Below, piece by piece: positions 5,689 to 14,374 of a DNA stretch of 64,000 nt. Position numbers and translations under genes: made by a program. Source of the stretch: an uncultured Chloroflexia bacterium (lineage in GTDB: Bacteria > Chloroflexota > Limnocylindria > QHBO01); the NCBI GenBank assembly GCA_963812115.1, contig CAWEUD010000041.1, positions 95,735-159,734 on the forward strand, written 5' to 3'. How positions within the stretch are numbered: position 1 is the stretch's first letter; every line of letters begins with the position of its first letter. Below the pieces are notes generated by a model, which saw nothing but the letters and a program-made list of their open reading frames with translations, was not told where the DNA came from and made no database searches.

Positions 5689-6345
5689 CTAGACCGATGC
5701 CCCCGATGCCGGAACCCCATCTCCCGTCGCCCCCTCCCGAGAGCGGGCCCGATGGCGGGCCGCCTTCGCCCGGTTGCCGCAGGTGCGCATGTCGCACCAG
5801 CGCCGACGGCCGGTGGGGGAGTGATCGACGAAGAGGTAGCGGCAGCCGGGATTGGCGCACACGCGGAGGCGCTCGGCTCGGCCCGCGGCCAGGAACTCCG
5901 CGAAGGATTCGGCAATGGCGGCGCGGGCCTGGTCCAGCCGGTCGCCAACCTGCGCGACCGCGTAGCTCGTTCTGCCCGGTGCGTGTCGGAGCTGGTGGTA
6001 GTGCAGGCCGTGCCTGAGGATGTGGTTGAGCTCACCGAGGTGCGCCGGGCTGGGCGCGCCCAGCTCGTCGATGTCCACCGCAACGGCACGCAGGACGTCC
6101 CGCAGGCGGCGGAATCGTTGCAGCCGCCGCGCCGCCTCCTGCGGCTGGCGTCGCAGCCGGCCGGCCTCCGCCGCGCGGCCGCGGGCGCTGATCAGCTGGG
6201 CGTCGCGAAGCCACCCGACGAGGGCGTCGACATTGGGGAGATGCTCAACGGCCTCGTCGCGGCTGAACTCCAGGGTATTCGCGAAGCGGACGAAGAGCTC
6301 GTCCACCTGCTCGGGCACGTCGACTGCACCATGCTTGTGGATCAT
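5689..6345 (-). CDS. CGNR zinc-finger (ABATE domain) protein, putative transcription regulator
   Basis: FANT N-terminal motif; C-x4-C..FVDHS...RRWCDMRTCGNRAKAARHR. Confidence 0.92.
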   Translation of the reverse strand: MIHKHGAVDVPEQVDELFVRFANTLEFSRDEAVEHLPNVDALVGWLRDAQLISARGRAAEAGRLRRQPQEAARRLQRFRRLRDVLRAVAVDIDELGAPSPAHLGELNHILRHGLHYHQLRHAPGRTSYAVAQVGDRLDQARAAIAESFAEFLAAGRAERLRVCANPGCRYLFVDHSPTGRRRWCDMRTCGNRAKAARHRARSREGATGDGVPASGASV

Positions 6346-6767: not shown

Positions 6768-6798
6768 GACGGCCCGCTCCGAAAGGGCGGGCCGTCTT
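6768..6798 (+). terminator. GC-rich hairpin with GAAA loop
   Basis: GACGGCCCGCTCC-GAAA-GGGCGGGCCGTC-TT after the small ORFs. Confidence 0.65.
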
Positions 6799-6820
6799 GC
6801 TGCCCGTAGAATTGCGGGCA

Positions 6821-8572
6821 ATGCCCAGACCCCGCACCGTCACGCGATCGTCCGACGTTGGGATCAGCAACGGCGAGCTGGCCGGTGTCTTCCGTGAGAT
6901 TGGCGACATGCTCGAGATCATGGGCGAGGTGGTCTACAAGTCGGTCGCCTACCGACGCGTGGCCGATGCCATCGAGCGCTATCCCGATGACGTGGCCGCC
7001 CTCTACCGTGCCGGGGCGCCGCCGAAGCTGCCCGGCGCGGGCCCGGCGCTCGGCGCGAAGCTCGCCGAGCTGGCCGAGACCGGTGCCCTCGGCTACCACG
7101 AACGGCTGCGAGCGCAGGTACCGGAAGGCCTCCTGGGGATGCTGCGCATTCCCGGCGTCGGTCCCCGGACGGTGAAGCTCCTTTATGCGGAGCTGGGCAT
7201 CGACTCGGTGGCCGCATTGCGCGCCGCCGCCGAAGACGGACGCCTGCGCGACGTGAAGGGGCTCTCGCGGCGCACGGAGGAGAACGTCCTGGCCGGGATC
7301 GCTCGGTTGGAGCGGGTGGGAACCCGCCTATTACTGCACGACGCCGACGCGTTGATCGCCGGCCTCCTGGAGGAGCTCGGTGACGTTCCGGGCGTGACCC
7401 GGCTCGAGCCGGCAGGTTCCCTCCGGCGGCGCCGAGCGACGATCGGCGATCTCGACCTGCTGGCCGCCACCACGCGGCCGGACGCGCTCGTCAAGCGGCT
7501 CGACGGGCTGCCGCAGGTCGAGCGGGTCCTGTCGGCCGGGACGGACAAGTCGTCGATCGTGCTTCGCGCCGGCCCGCGCGTCGATCTCATGATCTGCGCA
7601 CCTGAGGCGTGGGGCACGCATTTCGTCCACTTCACCGGCAGCAAGGAGCACAACGTCGCCCTGCGCGGCATCGCCCTCGATGCGGGCCTCTCGCTCTCGG
7701 AGAAGGGGTTCAAGGTGGTCGAGACCGGCGAGCTGCTCCGGGAGGCGGACGAGGCGGGCGTCTACGCGCGGCTGGACATGCCCTGGATTCCGGCAGAGCT
7801 GCGCGAGGATAGCGGGGAGATCCAGGCCGCGAGGGAGGGACGCCTCCCACAGCTCGTCACCGACGACGAGATCCGGGGCGACACGCACGTCCACTCCGAC
7901 TGGACCGATGGTGTGGATACGATCGAGGCGATGGCGCGGGCGTCGCGCGACCGCGGGTTGGAATGGATCGTCCTCACCGACCACTCGCCGTCGCTCGGCA
8001 TCACCCGGGGACTCACCCCCGACCGGGTTGATGAGCAGCGCCACGAGCTCGCGCGCTTGAATGCCGAGCTCGCACCATTCAGGATCATGCACGGGACGGA
8101 GATGGAGATCCGCGCCGATGGCAGCCTCGACTACCCCGACGCGCTGCTGGCCGGCTTCGACCTGGTGGTCGCCTCTGTCCACACCGCCCGTAGCCAGTCG
8201 AGCGAGGCGCTCACGCGGCGGACCGTGGCGGCCATCGAGAATCCGCACGTCGACGTGATCGCTCATCCCACCGGACGCATCGTGAACCGGCGGGATCCCG
8301 TTTCGCTCGACTGGCCGCGGGTCTTCGCAGCGGCCAGGGAGCACGGGACCGCGCTCGAGATCAACGGCAGCCCGCGCCTCGACCTCGATGATGCGCTGGC
8401 GCGCGCCGCGCGCGAAGCCGGTGCACGGCTGACCGTCGCCAGCGATGCTCACCGCACCGAGGAGCTGGACCAGCTGCGCTACGCCGTCTCGACGGCTCGA
8501 CGGGCATGGGTGACTTCCGCCGACCTGCTGGGAACGGCATCTGCCGACGAGTTGCTGGAGCGCCTCAGATGA
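6821..8572 (+). CDS. polX: DNA polymerase X / PHP 3'-5' exonuclease
   Basis: HhH motifs, AGSLRR, GDLDLL, RVDL, HFTGSKEHN; PHP motifs HVHSDWTDG, TDHS, AHP, SDAH. Confidence 0.95.
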   Translation: MPRPRTVTRSSDVGISNGELAGVFREIGDMLEIMGEVVYKSVAYRRVADAIERYPDDVAALYRAGAPPKLPGAGPALGAKLAELAETGALGYHERLRAQVPEGLLGMLRIPGVGPRTVKLLYAELGIDSVAALRAAAEDGRLRDVKGLSRRTEENVLAGIARLERVGTRLLLHDADALIAGLLEELGDVPGVTRLEPAGSLRRRRATIGDLDLLAATTRPDALVKRLDGLPQVERVLSAGTDKSSIVLRAGPRVDLMICAPEAWGTHFVHFTGSKEHNVALRGIALDAGLSLSEKGFKVVETGELLREADEAGVYARLDMPWIPAELREDSGEIQAAREGRLPQLVTDDEIRGDTHVHSDWTDGVDTIEAMARASRDRGLEWIVLTDHSPSLGITRGLTPDRVDEQRHELARLNAELAPFRIMHGTEMEIRADGSLDYPDALLAGFDLVVASVHTARSQSSEALTRRTVAAIENPHVDVIAHPTGRIVNRRDPVSLDWPRVFAAAREHGTALEINGSPRLDLDDALARAAREAGARLTVASDAHRTEELDQLRYAVSTARRAWVTSADLLGTASADELLERLR

Positions 8573-9345
8573 CCATCCGCCGGGTGACGGGACACTGGTC
8601 GTGGCGCCTCTCGGCGCGCGTCGAGCGACCGGAGGTCGTGCTGCTGGCCGTCGCGCTCGCCGGCCTCGCCGGGTACGGCTGGTACGCCTCGGCCTTCGGG
8701 CTCGCCGTGGTGGTCGGCGTGCAGCTGGCGCTGGGTGGGCTGGGGACCGTCTGGATCATCGGGCCGGCCACGGCGCGGCTCGGGTTCGCTCGCTACGGGA
8801 CCACGGCGCTGGCCGCCGTCGCCATGACGCTCTTCGGGCGTGCGGTGGTGGGCGACGTCGGCCTCTACCTGCTACCCGTCGCGCTGGCGGTAGTTTGGGC
8901 CACCCTGCGCCTGGAGCTCGAGCTGCAGGCCACGCTGCGCGGCCGCCTCGCGCTGGAGCTGCTCATGGTCGCCGTCGTGTTCGCGGCGGCCGAGGGCTCG
9001 ATTGCACTCGTCCCCCGCCAGTCGTGGAGTGACGGCCTCGCGCTGCTGGTGCTGGTTTCCGTCGTACCGGCCATCCGGATGGGCGAGGCAAGCGGTCGCT
9101 ACGGTGTACGCGCGGTGGGTGAGGGCCTGCTCCACCTCCTGGCTGTCGCCCAGGTGGCGGCAGCCGTCCATATCCTGGCCGTGCCCGCGCTGGTGGGCGC
9201 GGCGCTGGTGGCCCTCACGTTTCACGCCTGGTCGGGAGCCGCGGAGGCACTGGAGGGCGGAGCATCGGCCCGGACGGTCGCGCTCGAGTTTGGAGCACTT
9301 GCGATCCTCGGCCTAGTGGTGGCACTGCTCCTGCAGGGCGGGTGA
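8569..9345 (+). CDS. Multi-pass membrane protein, unknown function
   Basis: ATGA overlap with polX stop; about 8-9 hydrophobic segments. Confidence 0.75.
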   Translation: MTIRRVTGHWSWRLSARVERPEVVLLAVALAGLAGYGWYASAFGLAVVVGVQLALGGLGTVWIIGPATARLGFARYGTTALAAVAMTLFGRAVVGDVGLYLLPVALAVVWATLRLELELQATLRGRLALELLMVAVVFAAAEGSIALVPRQSWSDGLALLVLVSVVPAIRMGEASGRYGVRAVGEGLLHLLAVAQVAAAVHILAVPALVGAALVALTFHAWSGAAEALEGGASARTVALEFGALAILGLVVALLLQGG

Positions 9346-9478
9346 GGCTCACCGCCGGTCGCGTTGACACCCCTATCCGGCGGTGCTACAACAAGGCGCT
9401 TTCGGCGACCCGGCCGGTTGCCGCAGGCCATCTGCCCAGAAGAGAGATCCGCTTCACGCGGGGAGACGTAGCCCAAAC

Positions 9479-10309
9479 ATGACCCTTGGGGATACCGAAA
9501 CCATCAGCCGCCAGCGCCGACAGCTGGCCGATGCCGCCATCAGCAGCGCCACGCGCGGGGACTGGGAGTCAGCCGTCGAGGCGAACCGTCAGCTCCTGGA
9601 GAGCGGCCCGGACACCGATGCCTACAACCGCCTGGGCAAGGCCCTCGCGGAGCTCGGGCGCAATGCGGAGGCATTGGAGGCGTACCAGAGCGCACTCGCT
9701 CGCGACGCGACCAACCGCATCGCCGAGCGTAACGTTGCCAGGCTGCAGGTCATCATCGGCGGCCGGGCAAAGCGGTCGAACGGCAACGGCAAGTCCGAGA
9801 AGGCCTCCGCCGCATCGTTCATCGAGGAGATGGGCAAGACGGGCCATGCCCGCCTCGTGAACCTCGCGCCACCGCGCCGGCTGGCGCCGCTCTCGCCCGG
9901 TGACGCCGTCGATCTCGTGCTCGACGGGGAGCAGCTGCTCGCGCGCTACGGCGACATCGACGTGGGCCACGTCGAGCCACGCATCGGGAACCGGCTCGCC
10001 AAACTCATCGGCGGCGGCAATCGCTACGACGCGGCGATCACCATGATGGATCGGGACGACGTTCGCATCATCGTGCGTGAGGTCTTCTCCCACCCGAACA
10101 ACTTCGACAAGGTTTCCTTCCCGGGGAGCGTGGGCGCTCGGCCGGGTGACGTTCGACCGTACCTGAAGGGTAGTCCGCTCCGCTACGATGACGAGGAGGA
10201 GAGCGAAGAGCTCGACGAGGAGCAGGAAGAGGTCGAGGAGCTCGACACCAGCCTGCCGGAATACTCGGACGAGCCCGAGCTCGAAGAGGAGCTGATCGAG
10301 GAAGCGTAG
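9479..10309 (+). CDS. TPR-repeat protein with HIRAN-like domain and acidic tail
   Basis: TPR (DAYNRLGKALAELG...YQSAL..D.TNRIA); LSPGDAVDL...VGHVEPRIGNRLAKLI..GNRY; Glu/Asp-rich C-terminus; TTGACA at 9364. Confidence 0.78.
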   Translation: MTLGDTETISRQRRQLADAAISSATRGDWESAVEANRQLLESGPDTDAYNRLGKALAELGRNAEALEAYQSALARDATNRIAERNVARLQVIIGGRAKRSNGNGKSEKASAASFIEEMGKTGHARLVNLAPPRRLAPLSPGDAVDLVLDGEQLLARYGDIDVGHVEPRIGNRLAKLIGGGNRYDAAITMMDRDDVRIIVREVFSHPNNFDKVSFPGSVGARPGDVRPYLKGSPLRYDDEEESEELDEEQEEVEELDTSLPEYSDEPELEEELIEEA

Positions 10310-10317
10310 GAGGCGCT

Positions 10318-13128
10318 ATGGGCGACTCCGGCCGGAAACGGCTCGACCACGTCGTCCTTCCGCGCCGCCTCCCCGGCCTGGCGCTGTTGGAGCGCTACTT
10401 CCCTTCCCCGGCCGACAACCAGCTCGACGCGGAGCTGCTCGCCTTCTCACGCCCGGGGGACACCGTGCTCGATCCGTGGGCGGGTATCGGCTGGACGGCC
10501 CGTCGCGCGGTGGCCCACGGCATGCGTGCCGTCGCTGCTGATCCGAGCCCGTTCGCCCAGCTCGCCGCCCAGGCGTTCCTGCTGGCACCCGATGCCGGAG
10601 CCATCGACGCCGCCTTCAGCGGGTTGTCGACGTCCCGACGTGTCGACGTCCCGCTGCGCCAGCACATCGAGGAGCTGTACGCCACTCGCTGCCCGAACTG
10701 CCGCCACCCGGTCGTCGGAGAGCAGTTCATCTGGCCGCGCGATGCCGGCGCGCCCTCCCGCAAGATCTACCGCTGCGCCAGCTGCGACCTCTCCGTCGGC
10801 GGCGGCGAGGATCGCGTGGCCGCCGTCGACGAGATCGACCTCGCAAAGCTCGGGATCGAGCGGCCGCCGGTCGACGAGGCCGAGGAGGCCATCACCGACG
10901 CCGATGCCGATGACGAGCTGCCGCCCGCGCCCGTCGGCCTCACCGGAGAGCCGCCGCCTGAACCCGATGCCGGCGCCCTGGGCGAGGGGGGAGAGCCGCC
11001 CGCGCCGCCGGCGTTGAGCGTCGACCCGCCCACGGGTCCGCGCGGCGACCGACCGCACTTCGCCTCGACCGTGCACCCAGATCCCATCCAGCCCAACACC
11101 GCCGTGGATGCCAGGCGGGCCGTTCACTACCAGCAGCTCCGCGAGCGATTCCCGGTGCTCGACGGGCGTGGCGAGCTGGTGGACGAGATCCTCGAGCTCT
11201 ACACCCCCAGGAACCTGTACGCCCTGCAGGCCATCGCCGCCAAGATCGAGGCGGACGTGCGCGACCCTGCCATGCTCGCCGTGTTCCGCCTCGCGCTGGC
11301 CGCGTGCCTGCTGCCGGCAAGTCGCCTGAATGGCTATCCCGGCCGGGTTGCCTCGCTGCGCATCAGCGGCGGACGGGTCCGCCAGCCCGCCTCGCGCTTC
11401 CAGCGCGAGGTCAACGTCTGGCGCCTCTTCGAGGCCGCCGTGCGCGACGTGCGAACCGCGGTGGCTGCCCTCGGCAGGGATCGCCGGCCGGTGCGCTTCG
11501 CGGCGAGCCTCGAGGAGCTTGGCGGGGTCTCTGCAGCGAACGTCCTGTGGATCCGCTGCCGCCCGGCCGTCGTCGGACAGTATCTGCCGCCCGACGGGGT
11601 CGACATGGTGCTCGGTTCGGTCTCCGATCCCGCGAACGTGGATGAGCTGAGCTTCGAGTACCTCGCGACGGCCTGGCTCATCGGACGGGAGGCCGCAGAG
11701 ACGCTGCGACTGGAACCGATCTTCGGGGGCGGCCCGGCGCGGAGCGACGGGACCGAGGCCACCGCCCTGCGCCACGCATTCGCGTCGGCGGCGGGTGCGC
11801 TCAAGCCCGACGGATGGTTCAGCGTGATCGTCGAAGGCGACGATCCGGACCGGGTGCTGGCTCTGGCGCTCGCGGGTGCCGCGGCCGGCCTGCGGCTGGC
11901 CGACGTCATCCACCGCGAGTCCCGGCGTGCCGGGGACGGCGTGACGCTCCACCTGCGCAAGCCATCGGCCGAGGATCACCTGCGCGAGGCGATGCAACCG
12001 CAACCCCTGCGCCTCGGCGCCGAGGAGGGTCACCTCACCTACCCCGAGCTTGCCGACGCGATCGACCGCGCGGCGGGCAACCTGCTGCGAGCGCGCGGCG
12101 AGCCGGCTGGCCTCATGCGGATGGCGGCGGCCGTGCTGCTGGAGCTCGAGCGCAGCGGCCTCCTCGTCCGCCTGGCGCAGTCGCGCAGCGGTGCGGAGGC
12201 CGGCGGTGACCGACCCGGCCACGAGCTCGACGAGCGCCTGGAGCGAGGCCCTGCGGCCCTGCTCAGCATGCTGCTGCGCGAGGAGCTCGGACGCGACGAT
12301 CATCCGACGCTGGTTCGGCTCGGCGATCCTGAACGGCGGATGTGGTGGCTGCGCCAGCCGGAGCTGGCCGAATCTCCGCTCGCCGATCGGGTCGAGTGGG
12401 CGACCTACTCGATCCTCTCCACCGCCGGACGGCTCGACGAATCTGGCTTCCTGGAGCGGATCTACGCCCTCTTCCCGGGGCTGGAGGCGCCCGACGAGGA
12501 GCTGGTCCGGGCGTGCCTGGCGGCGTACGCCGCGGTCGGCGAGAAGGGCCAGCTGCGCACCGACGAGGAGCTTGGCGTGCGGCTGCACGACCACGCGCGC
12601 ATCATCGGCATGCTGGTCGACTACGCCCATCGGCTGGGGCTGCGGGCCTGGGTGAGCCGCCGCGAGCACGATCGGCCCTACGCCGGGACGACGCTCTACG
12701 AGCGGCTCCACGAGGACGAGCGACGGGCTTACCTGCCGCTCGTGGTGCGTGCCCCGTCGGACGTGCTGGGGGCGGTGGATGCCCTCTGGTACCGCCGCGG
12801 CCGGATGGCCTTCCTGTTCGAGGTGGAGTGGACGGCACAGATGGGCGAGGCGGTCCTGCGACGCGGCCGCGGGATCGAGCCGACCGATCAGCAGGCCCGC
12901 TTCCTGGTGATCCCGGCGGAGCGAGCCGAGCTGATCGGCCTCAAACTGGAGCGGTCGCCCTGGCTGCGGAGCGAGATCGAGCGCCAGAACTGGCACTTCC
13001 TGAAGTGGCAGCACTTCGAGGCGCTCTTCCGACGGGAGGGGGCTGGCCTCGAGCGGCTGGAGCCGATCCTTGGGCTGACCCCGCTCGTCGAGCGCGGCGG
13101 CCAGCAGCTGACGATGTTCGGCGAGTAA
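10318..13128 (+). CDS. DNA methyltransferase-like protein with Zn ribbon and C-terminal PD-(D/E)xK-like domain
   Basis: Motif I-like VLDPWAGIG, CxxC...CxxC, C-terminal VDALW...FEVEWT; AGGAGG RBS. Confidence 0.75.
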   Translation: MGDSGRKRLDHVVLPRRLPGLALLERYFPSPADNQLDAELLAFSRPGDTVLDPWAGIGWTARRAVAHGMRAVAADPSPFAQLAAQAFLLAPDAGAIDAAFSGLSTSRRVDVPLRQHIEELYATRCPNCRHPVVGEQFIWPRDAGAPSRKIYRCASCDLSVGGGEDRVAAVDEIDLAKLGIERPPVDEAEEAITDADADDELPPAPVGLTGEPPPEPDAGALGEGGEPPAPPALSVDPPTGPRGDRPHFASTVHPDPIQPNTAVDARRAVHYQQLRERFPVLDGRGELVDEILELYTPRNLYALQAIAAKIEADVRDPAMLAVFRLALAACLLPASRLNGYPGRVASLRISGGRVRQPASRFQREVNVWRLFEAAVRDVRTAVAALGRDRRPVRFAASLEELGGVSAANVLWIRCRPAVVGQYLPPDGVDMVLGSVSDPANVDELSFEYLATAWLIGREAAETLRLEPIFGGGPARSDGTEATALRHAFASAAGALKPDGWFSVIVEGDDPDRVLALALAGAAAGLRLADVIHRESRRAGDGVTLHLRKPSAEDHLREAMQPQPLRLGAEEGHLTYPELADAIDRAAGNLLRARGEPAGLMRMAAAVLLELERSGLLVRLAQSRSGAEAGGDRPGHELDERLERGPAALLSMLLREELGRDDHPTLVRLGDPERRMWWLRQPELAESPLADRVEWATYSILSTAGRLDESGFLERIYALFPGLEAPDEELVRACLAAYAAVGEKGQLRTDEELGVRLHDHARIIGMLVDYAHRLGLRAWVSRREHDRPYAGTTLYERLHEDERRAYLPLVVRAPSDVLGAVDALWYRRGRMAFLFEVEWTAQMGEAVLRRGRGIEPTDQQARFLVIPAERAELIGLKLERSPWLRSEIERQNWHFLKWQHFEALFRREGAGLERLEPILGLTPLVERGGQQLTMFGE

Positions 13129-13234: not shown

Positions 13235-13585
13235 TCATTCCCCAGAGCGTTTCCGCGGGGCTTTGCGGCCGACGGCGCGCCGCACCACCGACATCACCTC
13301 GTCCACGTACGGCTGGCCCTGGCCGGACTCGATGGCATGCGTCAGGCAGCCCGAGATGTGGTCCTCCAGGACGAGCATCGCGACCTGGTCGGCGGCCGCC
13401 GTCATGGCCTCGACCTGCTGCAGCACGTCCAGGCAGTAGGCTTCGCCCTCGACCAGCCGCTGCAGCCCCCGGGCCTGGCCCTCGATTCGCCTGAGCCGAT
13501 GCAGGAGCTCGGTGCGGTCCCTGGTGTAGGAGTGCCGGAAGTGCTCGCCAGCGTGCGCCGCGCGCTGCGTGGAGTCGCTCGTCAT
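13235..13585 (-). CDS. csoR: CsoR/RcnR family metal-sensing repressor
   Basis: RLRRIEGQ, YC..VLQQ, LEDHISGC (Cys-His-Cys set); start ATG 13585. Confidence 0.9.
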   Translation of the reverse strand: MTSDSTQRAAHAGEHFRHSYTRDRTELLHRLRRIEGQARGLQRLVEGEAYCLDVLQQVEAMTAAADQVAMLVLEDHISGCLTHAIESGQGQPYVDEVMSVVRRAVGRKAPRKRSGE

Positions 13586-13642: not shown

Positions 13643-14374
13643 ATGGTGATCGATCTGGAACGACACGAGCTGATCAGCCCGCTCGAGCGGGTGCTGGTCG
13701 TCTTCAGCCACCCCGATGACGCCGAGTTCGGTGCCGCGCCCACCATCGCCGCCCTCTCGGCCACCGGCGCGCGGATCGACTACGTCGTGACGACGGACGG
13801 CGGCAAGGGGACCGATGACGCCTCCGTCTCGCCCGAGGCGCTGGCCGCGACGAGGATCGCGGAGCAGCGGGCCGCTGCCGACGTGCTCGGGGTGAACGAG
13901 ATTGTCCACCTCGGCTACGCCGATGGGTACCTGACGCCATCGCTCGATCTGCGTCGCGACATCACCCGCCAGATCCGGCGGTTTCGGCCCGACCTGGTCA
14001 TCGCGCAGCATCCGCAGCGCCGGCTGGACGCCAGCCCCTTCATGAACCATCCCGACCACATCGCCACCGGAGAGGCGACGCTCGCCGCCGTCTACCCGGC
14101 GGCTCGCGACCGGCACAACTTCCCGGAGCTGGTCGACGAGGGATTGGAGCCATGGAAGGTACGACAGGTGCTGGTGACGGGTGCTGCGACGCCGAATTTC
14201 TGGATTGACGTCGCCGACACGTACGAGACCGGGCTGGCGGCGCTGCGCTGCCACGTCAGCCAGGTCGATGACTGGGGACCCGTCGAGGAGCGCCTCCGGG
14301 AGCGCGTGGCCACGGCCGGCGCGGCGGTTGGGCTGCCCATGGCCCAGGCCTTCCTCTCCATCCTGCTCACCTGA
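13643..14374 (+). CDS. PIG-L/LmbE family deacetylase
   Basis: HPDDAEFG, RIAEQ, HPDH, ALRCHVSQ. Confidence 0.92.
   Translation: MVIDLERHELISPLERVLVVFSHPDDAEFGAAPTIAALSATGARIDYVVTTDGGKGTDDASVSPEALAATRIAEQRAAADVLGVNEIVHLGYADGYLTPSLDLRRDITRQIRRFRPDLVIAQHPQRRLDASPFMNHPDHIATGEATLAAVYPAARDRHNFPELVDEGLEPWKVRQVLVTGAATPNFWIDVADTYETGLAALRCHVSQVDDWGPVEERLRERVATAGAAVGLPMAQAFLSILLT

Follow-up and report, generated by a model that had tools for sequence, protein, structure and literature searches.

The known clients of sliding clamps include polymerases, ligases, MutL, NucS, glycosylases and regulators, and those of the bacterial beta clamp that carry QL[SD]LF-type motifs include Pol IV/DinB, MutL, Hda and others. 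NucS/EndoMS, a mismatch endonuclease of archaea and actinobacteria that occurs in lineages without MutS/MutL, joins a PD-(D/E)xK-type nuclease to a C-terminal clamp peptide; the archaeal peptide is a PCNA-interacting-protein (PIP) box and the bacterial one a beta-clamp motif. In eukaryotes, the maintenance methylase Dnmt1 binds PCNA. Here we analyzed a 936-aa open reading frame (ORF; P0001) at 10318..13128 on the forward strand of a 64,000-nucleotide stretch of DNA (the window) from an uncultured Chloroflexota bacterium of the class Limnocylindria. Our assessment, to which we assign a probability of about 0.6, is that its product is the domesticated descendant of a single-chain enzyme made of a methylase and a restriction nuclease, recruited to DNA by the sliding clamp and likely serving in surveillance or repair.

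The protein combines features of kinds already known, clamp-tethered repair nucleases on the one hand and methylase-nuclease fusions on the other. Like NucS/EndoMS, it has a nuclease-like domain followed by a clamp-type peptide, and it belongs to a class in which neither MutS_I (0/32 genomes) nor MutL (0/61) was found. But it has no match to NucS_C (PF01939), the small N-terminal domain of NucS is replaced by a putative 560-residue methylase-like reader and two winged helices, and its family coexists with MutS_I in the Chloroflexota families f5, f9, f14, f18 and f21. As in the Type IIG/IIC restriction-modification (R-M) enzymes and R.NmeDI-type nucleases, a methylase fold and a restriction-type nuclease are found in one polypeptide, and the Pfam family PF27126 (NmeDI_C) is annotated on orthologs. 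Unlike in those enzymes, motif IV is lost, the order is methylase and then nuclease with a clamp-type tail, and the gene has the pattern of a vertically inherited core gene, whereas R-M genes are patchy and mobile. R.NmeDI itself is a characterised type II endonuclease (PMC2095814).

A word-indexed search returned 511 relatives, and the 120 orthologs referred to below are the best 120 of these. They share 68-87% identity with the query, are nearly all full-length with a query coverage of 93-100%, and those of them that are named are labelled Candidatus Limnocylindria or Chloroflexota. An exhaustive representative search returned 1248 clusters at E ≤ 1e-3 and 187 at E ≤ 1e-30. Diversity was sampled with 36 full-length relatives at 23-66% identity to the query, with another diverse set of 44, and, for the tail among distant members, with 83 representatives at 50% identity covering the C-terminal domain. 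When loci were searched with a 12-row alignment, the best 80 matches were close relatives without exception, most of them with a Limnocylindria or Chloroflexota label. Among described families, Pfam matched N6_N4_Mtase (PF01555) at residues 40-72 only, with 15.7 bits, under the 26.7-bit cut-off, and did so likewise in four orthologs, while NCBIfam held no family for the 936-aa protein. PADLOC reported Type II methylase models only, confined to the motif I region (best E 1.5e-6), and no PADLOC model matched the C-terminal half. A search of PDB sequences matched RsrI methylase at residues 36-100 (E 3.3e-4), and a profile search of PDB sequences found only beta-class methylases at motif I (RsrI, MboIIA, CcrM and PvuII), the nuclease half remaining without a match. 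Of the 120 listed orthologs, 41 have a precomputed PF27126 annotation, as do 19-32% of the members of the nearest protein-atlas clusters; for the query protein itself the entry is "-". The literature searched (clamp-binding motifs with methylase/restriction-type or inactive-methylase proteins, and archaeal PIP-box methylases) gave no description of such a family and no methylase-like or restriction-like clamp client.

The AlphaFold model of residues 1-570 has a mean predicted local distance difference test (pLDDT) score of 85 and matches class I methyltransferases. VIA-align paired it with Trm11 (6zxv_A, Z 19.9, root-mean-square deviation (rmsd) 3.1, 177 aligned) and TrmN (3tma_A, Z 19.7, rmsd 2.2, 171 aligned), and Foldseek returned 64 methyltransferase matches at E ≤ 1e-3. 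Since the fold matches span model residues 8-552, the methyltransferase fold is complete. It is split by an insertion of about 300 residues, which holds a Zn ribbon, a stretch of low complexity specific to the clade, and a helical module that is conserved (Table 1). The S-adenosylmethionine (SAM) loop is present as DPWAGIG at residues 52-58 with an acidic AADPSP at residues 73-78, and it aligns to RsrI. The four ribbon cysteines (CPNC at residues 125-128 and CASC at 153-156) are invariant in the diverse relatives (36/36 and 44/44), whereas the low-complexity stretch is absent from most relatives and its residues 204-253 are disordered in the model (pLDDT < 50). In the helical insert, R298 is invariant and R277, L294 and T296 are nearly so among diverse relatives. 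The insert aligns with the same region of an active Zn-ribbon methylase and is probably a DNA-recognition module similar to a target-recognition domain.

The whole arrangement is like that of the DUF1156 Zn-ribbon N6/N4 methylases (COG1743-like), in which motif I, the CxxC ribbon, a helical insert with (F/Y)xxR(N/Q)L, E-x-N-V-W and motif IV come in the same order. An hhalign comparison with one of these, the DUF1156/N6_N4_Mtase protein of locus L107, gave a probability of 99.6% (E 9e-25) over 375 columns, the Zn ribbon aligning with the Zn-ribbon region of the DUF1156 methylase and the other elements pairing in order, i.e., DPFMGGG with DPWAGIG, ENNVW with REVNVW and TDPPYFDN with GSVSDPAN. 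The L107 protein differs from the query in its GGG motif I, its DPPY and its DUF1156 N-terminus, and has neither nuclease nor clamp tail; the query is without DPPY.

An earlier, preliminary description of this ORF had reported a SAM motif I-like sequence, a CxxC ribbon, the absence of a DPPY-type motif IV, a nuclease-like core and a clamp-like C-terminus. A script recovered every named motif at the positions given there, and the string [DNS]PP[YFWH] occurs nowhere in the 936 residues, where xPPx strings are limited to RPPV, LPPA, EPPP, EPPA, DPPT and LPPD. The motif IV column reads GSVSDPAN in the query and DPPY in active relatives, the DPPY of the remote relatives aligning at this very position. 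Among the 120 orthologs, the 14-mer around motif IV exists in 86 versions (e.g., GSPPPAGS, SSVADAPS and GSVSDVAS), none of them with DPPY, while column conservation in the surrounding methylase domain is 0.84-0.90. Because the loop drifts freely inside a constrained domain, it is probably not doing catalysis, and the loss of methylase activity in the query clade is well supported by these alignments. Motif I, in contrast, is kept as [VI]LDPW[AS]G[TI]G in at least 115 of the 120 orthologs, together with an AADPSP-like motif II. The SAM-binding half therefore looks constrained and only motif IV is degenerate, so that the earlier picture of a catalytically degenerate methyltransferase is narrowed to motif IV, and the conservation of motif I suggests that ligand binding is retained. 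Across the 36 diverse relatives, a canonical (D/N/S)PP(Y/F/W) is found in only two (P0210 and P0222); the others mostly have xPPx without the aromatic residue, and in most of them PFCRxxx stands where the glycine loop would be.

The model of residues 565-936 has a mean pLDDT of 92. In a wide VIA-align search, two winged helices were matched at model residues 10-120 (Z up to 8.1) and 119-186 (Z up to 8.8), with scores of Z 7-8.8 over the pair, and model residues 186-363 matched a series of PD-(D/E)xK proteins, with the small subunit of R.BspD6I on top (2p14_A, Z 7.7, rmsd 4.0, 136 aligned), followed by AF1548 (1y88_A, Z 7.3), Hna (9yhn_A), N.BspD6I (2ewf_A) and AF2093 (2ph7_B) (all Z 6.8), LlaBIII (4xqk_A, Z 6.5) and a Can-type nuclease (6sce_A, Z 6.4). 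The domain, whose VDALW (residues 820-824) and FEVEWT (834-839) had been likened to a PD-(D/E)xK core, thus likely has a restriction-endonuclease-like fold, as modelled, with middling scores (Z 6.4-7.7). In the model, one strand begins with D821 and the following strand ends with E835 and E837; R869 is invariant in the domain. The segments AxDA[IL]WY, F[ED]VEWTA and PAER are strongly kept across the 120 orthologs. Of the 36 diverse relatives, 19 keep D821 with [ED]835-x-E837, 4 keep it in part and 13 have lost it.

Tethering to the clamp is well supported by comparison, owing to a family-wide tail, a PIP box in remote relatives and the occurrence of QLTLF in DinB and a uracil-DNA glycosylase (UDG) of the same genome. 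The protein ends with QLTMF two residues before its C-terminus, in a segment predicted to be disordered, which in the model is not packed against its own domain (mean pLDDT 64 at model residues 361-370 and 45 at 371-372). The pattern Q[LIMV]x[LMIVF][FLMWY] is found near the C-terminus of all 120 orthologs and of 70 of the 83 representatives, mostly 0-2 residues from the end, and several of the 13 representatives that lack it have near variants such as QLAFRW and QLPLI. Orthologs with an intact DPPY and no terminal motif were not seen, since none of the 120 has the former and all have the latter. The listed sequence features exceed chance because they are conserved among relatives.

The remote relatives were examined as the 120 best matches of P0222, one of the relatives with an intact DPPY. 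Of these, 119 have [DNS]PP[YFW], nearly all have N6_N4_Mtase and NmeDI_C (PF27126 being precomputed on nearly all), and the nuclease motif FE[VI]E[NH] is found in 112. A PIP-box pattern, Qxx[LIMV]xx[FYW], lies within the last 12 residues in 87 of them (e.g., KQNSLNLYL, KQLNLINF and QKNIYEFE), whereas shuffling of the last 80 residues gave 0.64 on average and never more than 4 of 120; these relatives are, however, not independent of one another. QIKLF ends 11 of the 120, and 22 have neither motif. Only six of these proteins carry a label, five archaeal (Aenigmarchaeota, Euryarchaeota, two Woesearchaeota and Halobacteriota) and one bacterial (Zixibacteria). The strict PIP pattern is found in four of the five archaeal-labelled proteins, the fifth having QTTLHEHL, and the sole bacterial-labelled one is among those with QIKLF. 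In the 120 Limnocylindria orthologs, the PIP pattern was found in none and the strict beta-type motif in 114. As far as these few labels go, the terminal peptide follows the clamp type of the host, which is hard to explain except by clamp binding. With its methylase motifs, nuclease motif and PIP box, the P0222 group (the archaeal-labelled members included) resembles Dnmt1 in joining an intact DNA methylase to a PCNA-type peptide. By this analogy it suggests clamp-coupled maintenance methylation in prokaryotes, although the methylase class is unrelated to Dnmt1 and that of the query is degenerate and fused to a nuclease.

The source genome assembly (2.16 Mb, 79.5% complete, 1858 crude ORF calls) has DnaN (L001:1501-2622). 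Its DinB/Pol IV homologue, a 407-aa frame (G000:C4, ~10441-10881 (-); L120), has an internal QQLTLFD in its C-terminal region, and a family-4 UDG of 229 aa (PF03167, E 1.4e-37; G000:C30:82083-82769, L119:1084-1770) ends with DQLTLFQEST. The disordered terminal Q-L-x-[LM]-F of the query is near-identical to both, and QLT[LM]F is therefore the form that the motif takes in recognised clamp clients of this organism. The UDG likely binds the beta clamp too, as its terminal sequence implies. The UDG has an N-terminal CxxC and a C-terminal extension, at the end of which DQLTLFQEST lies, and in the DinB homologue QQLTLFD is followed by a further C-terminal extension of about 60 residues. A complex prediction of DnaN with the last 60 residues of the query scored 0.28 and 0.06 against a mark of 0.32, was run without controls, and counts neither way. 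The comparative evidence upholds the initial reading of QLTMF as a clamp-like peptide, and clamp tethering of the query protein is, on this basis, a well-supported prediction.

In 301 Chloroflexota genomes searched with a profile built from the 36 relatives, long, near-full-length matches were found in f1 (15/15) and f2 (15/15), in most or all scoring genomes of f5 (2/2), f9 (18/19), f14 (2/2), f18 (2/2) and f21 (3/3), and also in f33 and f34, most other Chloroflexota families giving weak matches or none. Within the class Limnocylindria, 59 of the 61 genomes carry the gene at E ≤ 1e-30 (f1 20/20, f69 18/19, f2 17/17, f3 2/3 and f70 1/1), in one place per genome except for two separate frames in G318, and the sole in-frame stop among these matches is a TGA in the G315 copy (G315:C39:15176-16558). 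Such a distribution is that of a core gene inherited vertically and not of a mobile R-M system. In the source genome, as far as its 79.5% completeness goes, no other methylase of the N6_N4, C5, N6_Mtase or D12/Dam type was found, and the suspicion that this is not an R-M gene is well supported.

The lineages differ in what they have kept. The P0222 group has intact methylase motifs, nuclease motif and PIP box. In f1, f2, f5, f21 and f34, motif IV is dead, the acidic triad is intact (as Q-V-E in the f21 locus) and the tail is of the beta-clamp type. The forms of about 750 aa in f9 and f33 have lost both catalytic signatures and kept QMxxF or QLxLL. The f3 copy (L118:6903-9239 (-)), from streamlined genomes of 1.1-1.2 Mb, is much diverged (E ~1e-36) and retains neither the nuclease triad nor motif I nor the terminal motif. 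Across lineages, the clamp-linked scaffold appears to be the most persistent feature, and a non-catalytic role is therefore a serious competing explanation for the whole family, less so for the query clade.

The class also seems, from its genome sequences, to be without every known mismatch-repair system. MutS_I is present in 254 of the 301 Chloroflexota genomes and in none of the class (0/15 in f1, 0/15 in f2 and 0/2 in f3; 0/32 in total); this phylum tally includes G227, G145, G038, G272 and G173, which are flagged as unpublished, all lie outside the class and carry no Limnocylindria claim. MutL was found in none of 61 class genomes. The source genome, at its 79.5% completeness, has no match to MutS domain I, MutL or NucS_C (the last at E ≤ 0.001, with the query ORF included), and its sole MutS-related match is a 568-aa frame with MutS domain V (G000:C20:61778-62311; L003), which may be MutS2-like or another paralogue. 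NucS_C matches elsewhere in the class are short, covering about 40 of the 124 profile positions in small frames, with G312 alone covering positions 5-107; owing to this short coverage the fragments were not counted as NucS. Among the literature searched, no paper states a loss of mismatch repair in the class. Loss of base-excision repair in Limnocylindraceae is discussed in PMC13212565. A simple replacement of MutS/MutL as a rule for the family is rejected, since f5, f9, f14, f18 and f21 carry both the family and MutS_I, and the protein is therefore not a simple substitute for MutS. With no known mismatch-repair family found in the sampled Limnocylindria, it is nevertheless a testable candidate for replication fidelity.

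No more than two hints of DNA repair, independent of each other, come from gene context. Families f1 and f2 both have a PolX-type polymerase gene upstream of the ORF, as in the window, and the order PolX, small protein, TPR protein and ORF recurs in f2 (L099, L100 and L104). The TPR gene directly precedes the ORF in every locus examined in f1 (16; L010-L025) and f2 (8; L026-L033), with 45-74% identity, and its product is possibly a partner or regulator of the ORF. In both f18 loci (L109:2726-9558 (-) and L117:2640-9357 (-)), the homologue heads a tight same-strand cluster with gaps of at most 11 nt or overlaps, in which it is followed by a DEAD/MZB/WHD_HRQ1 helicase, an RNase_H_2 protein and a metallo-beta-lactamase-fold protein. 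The helicase has the MrfA-type domain set and the RNase_H_2 protein is MrfB-like, MrfA and MrfB being mitomycin repair factors of B. subtilis. Other Pfam neighbours within three genes are mostly unrelated. No neighbour within 1.5 kb is shared by seven distant loci, so that a conserved partner across the phylum was ruled out. There is likewise no R-M partner near the ORF, as had been remarked at the outset, and no defence gene.

Taken as a mechanism, QLTMF would dock into the beta clamp (DnaN) and so place the protein on freshly replicated DNA or on repair intermediates. The dead methylase module, the Zn ribbon, the helical insert and the winged helices may together act as a DNA reader, which might flip a base and for which SAM may serve as a cofactor, and the nuclease would then nick or cut the DNA. 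The most likely role would be replication-coupled surveillance or repair and not R-M. Repair is plausible from the gene context (PolX and the MrfA/MrfB-like operon) and from the lack of another DNA methylase among the genes of the incomplete genome. Thus, of the earlier proposal of a replisome-tethered nuclease for repair or for reading modifications, the tether is backed by comparison and repair by gene context in two lineages, whereas the reading of modifications found no specific support. A bolder version, which we consider improbable, is that the family supplies the nuclease of a repair pathway not recognised before, clamp-directed and replication-coupled, in which the dead base-flipping module would read mismatches or lesions and the fused nuclease would incise the nascent strand as oriented by the clamp. 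It would then be the main post-replicative error correction in Limnocylindria, exapted from an R-M enzyme tethered to PCNA or the beta clamp and still active in DPANN-type archaea.

Several observations weigh against a clamp-recruited surveillance or repair nuclease. The switch of the tail is read from six labelled remote relatives, and labels from metagenome bins can be wrong. Within the source genome, Q[LIM]x[LM][FL] occurs within the last 10 residues of 3 of the 1858 crude ORFs, a number that at least one of 200 shuffles reached (mean 0.61, maximum 3), and the count itself is therefore not significant; the three are the query, the UDG and a 162-aa ORF, low in third-position G+C and possibly not a gene. 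The two f18 copies beside the helicase do not match the tail pattern, and outside the two lineages the neighbours are unrelated to DNA metabolism (glycosyltransferases, a penicillin-binding protein, an amylase and histidine-utilisation genes). The match to the nuclease fold is middling, as a best Z of 7-8 is typical of models without a clear match, and Foldseek returned nothing from the PDB for the C-terminal model at E ≤ 1e-3. The Lys of (D/E)xK is replaced by Glu (E837), giving E-x-E, a variant known from BamHI. The f9 and f33 forms and 13 of the 36 diverse relatives have lost E-x-E, yet mostly keep the tail, so the function conserved in the family may not need catalysis. Finally, with the SAM loop conserved, an unconventional methyl transfer is still conceivable.

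These points bear on the alternatives in different ways. The protein might be a non-catalytic, clamp-associated DNA-binding factor, such as a replisome regulator or adaptor, in which both domains are scaffolds only. The f9 and f33 loci (L112-L116), which kept QMxxF/QLxLL after losing D...E-x-E and motif IV, would fit this well, as would the 13 diverse relatives without E-x-E, most of which still end with QIPLF or QLPLF, and the family-wide invariants, which are mostly non-catalytic (the Zn ribbon, R298, E364, W368, E595 and E693). But the query clade strongly keeps the acidic triad region and the SAM loop, which argues for ligand binding and catalysis, and for this protein we regard a pure scaffold as unlikely. 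It might equally be a defence enzyme, i.e., a restriction-type nuclease in a single chain that would be led by the host clamp to phage or plasmid DNA in replication and whose self-protection is not by its own methylation. Descent from methylase-nuclease fusions with a Pfam family named after the type II R.NmeDI, the Type II methylase models of PADLOC at motif I, and the P0222 group, which looks like a working R-M-type enzyme, all point that way. Such an enzyme is hard to reconcile with a single-copy gene that is near-universal in the class and present in 18 of 19 f9 genomes, with conserved synteny and no defence genes nearby, with a C-terminal half that no PADLOC model matches, and with a genome in which, at its present completeness, no self-protecting methylase was found; we hold a defence role to be doubtful.

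The clamp motif itself could be misread, QLTMF being instead a peptide for oligomerisation or intramolecular docking. The motif is short, the docking run lent no structural support to the clamp and the genome-wide count is within the range of the shuffles. Self-docking would, however, leave unexplained the switch between PIP-type tails in the P0222 group and Q[LIM]x[LM][FL] in the bacterial ones. The near-identical QLTLF in DinB and UDG of the same genome, and a tail that is disordered and not packed on its own domain in the model, also speak against it, and we consider it very unlikely. That the ORF is an ordinary orphan or decaying R-M gene, as its weak N6_N4_Mtase match, lost motif IV and missing partner gene could suggest, is hardly credible and was rejected. 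It is contradicted by orthologs that are nearly all full-length at 68-87% identity, by class matches without an in-frame stop save the one in G315, by its presence in 59 of 61 class genomes, and by the strong constraint on motif I, the Zn ribbon, the helical insert, the nuclease core and the tail. Descent from a methylase-nuclease enzyme, with recruitment by the clamp for surveillance or repair, thus remains our preferred interpretation.

If this interpretation is true, a restriction-enzyme-derived methylase-nuclease fusion with a clamp peptide specific to the domain of its host would be a new class of clamp client, and would clearly exemplify how an R-M-type enzyme can become a core gene of the chromosome. 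The switch between PIP and beta motifs and the core-gene status make the case specific and testable. Limnocylindria are abundant soil and freshwater bacteria, and the protein is a candidate for their replication fidelity; should the repair reading be true, it would be a third solution to post-replicative correction beside MutS/MutL and NucS. The staged decay from active methylase and nuclease, through dead methylase with nuclease, to the loss of both with the tail kept, would offer a natural series for probing a clamp-bound scaffold.

Table 1. Features of the ORF and its neighbours in the window (positions count from the first letter of the window)
Feature	Position	Strand	Basis
ABATE + zf-CGNR protein	5689-6345	-	Pfam
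PolX-type DNA polymerase with PHP domain, two genes upstream	6797..8572	+	Pfam
279-aa hydrophobic protein without Pfam family, after PolX	8506-9345	+	Pfam
Upstream TPR protein with acidic C-terminal tail (...EESEELDEEQEEVEELD...)	9476..10309	+	Pfam TPR matches
Shine-Dalgarno-like AGGAGG	10308..10313	+	Read directly from sequence
Whole ORF, 936 aa: methylase-like module, two winged helices, nuclease-like domain, predicted clamp-binding tail	10318..13128	+	Orthologs, class distribution
N-terminal part of class I methyltransferase fold, residues 1-110, with motif I and acidic motif II AADPSP	10318..10647	+	Pfam, RsrI, profile matches
Motif I VLDPWAGIG, residues 50-58	10465-10491	+	Script
Zinc ribbon CxxC...CxxC (C125, C128, C153, C156), inserted in methylase fold	10690..10785	+	Strands at 122-169 in model
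Low-complexity Pro/Glu/Asp/Ala-rich insertion, residues ~180-262, clade-specific	10855..11103	+	Absent from most relatives; lowest column conservation (0.65)
Helical insertion, residues ~263-360, with conserved YTPRNLYAL motif	11104..11397	+	Column conservation 0.90
C-terminal part of methyltransferase fold, residues 361-560, with E-x-N-x-W motif REVNVW (363-368) and degenerate motif IV loop	11398..11997	+	Structure matches
Motif IV position, DMVLGSVSDPAN, residues 429-440	11602-11637	+	Script
Two winged-helix domains, residues ~574-684 and 685-750	12037..12567	+	Structure matches
Probable restriction-endonuclease-like (PD-(D/E)xK-type) domain	12568..13032	+	VIA-align, residue conservation
Putative active site, D821, E835 and E837	12778-12780 (D821), 12820-12828 (E835 and E837)	+	Conservation, model
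Conserved linker (…LEPILGLTPLVERGGQ)	13033..13104	+	G919 nearly invariant; column conservation 0.86
QLTMF, predicted beta-clamp-binding pentapeptide, residues 930-934 of 936, two from C-terminus	13105..13119	+	Conservation
CsoR-type metal-sensitive repressor	13238-13540	-	Pfam
PIG-L/LmbE-type deacetylase	13643-14374	+	Pfam

The CsoR, PIG-L/LmbE and ABATE neighbours are ordinary genes without an evident link to the ORF, and the TPR protein has an unannotated middle domain. In one f5 genome, the active-looking DUF1156 and N6_N4_Mtase gene with intact DPPY (L107:9722-11800 (-)) adjoins a member of the family; it is missing from the same neighbourhood of the sister genome (L108) and therefore looks like an insertion. 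The G+C content of the locus in the window is 0.70-0.73, the same as that of its surroundings. The ORF starts with ATG, and the AGGAGG read directly from the sequence lies 4 nt before it, overlapping the stop codon of the upstream TPR gene.

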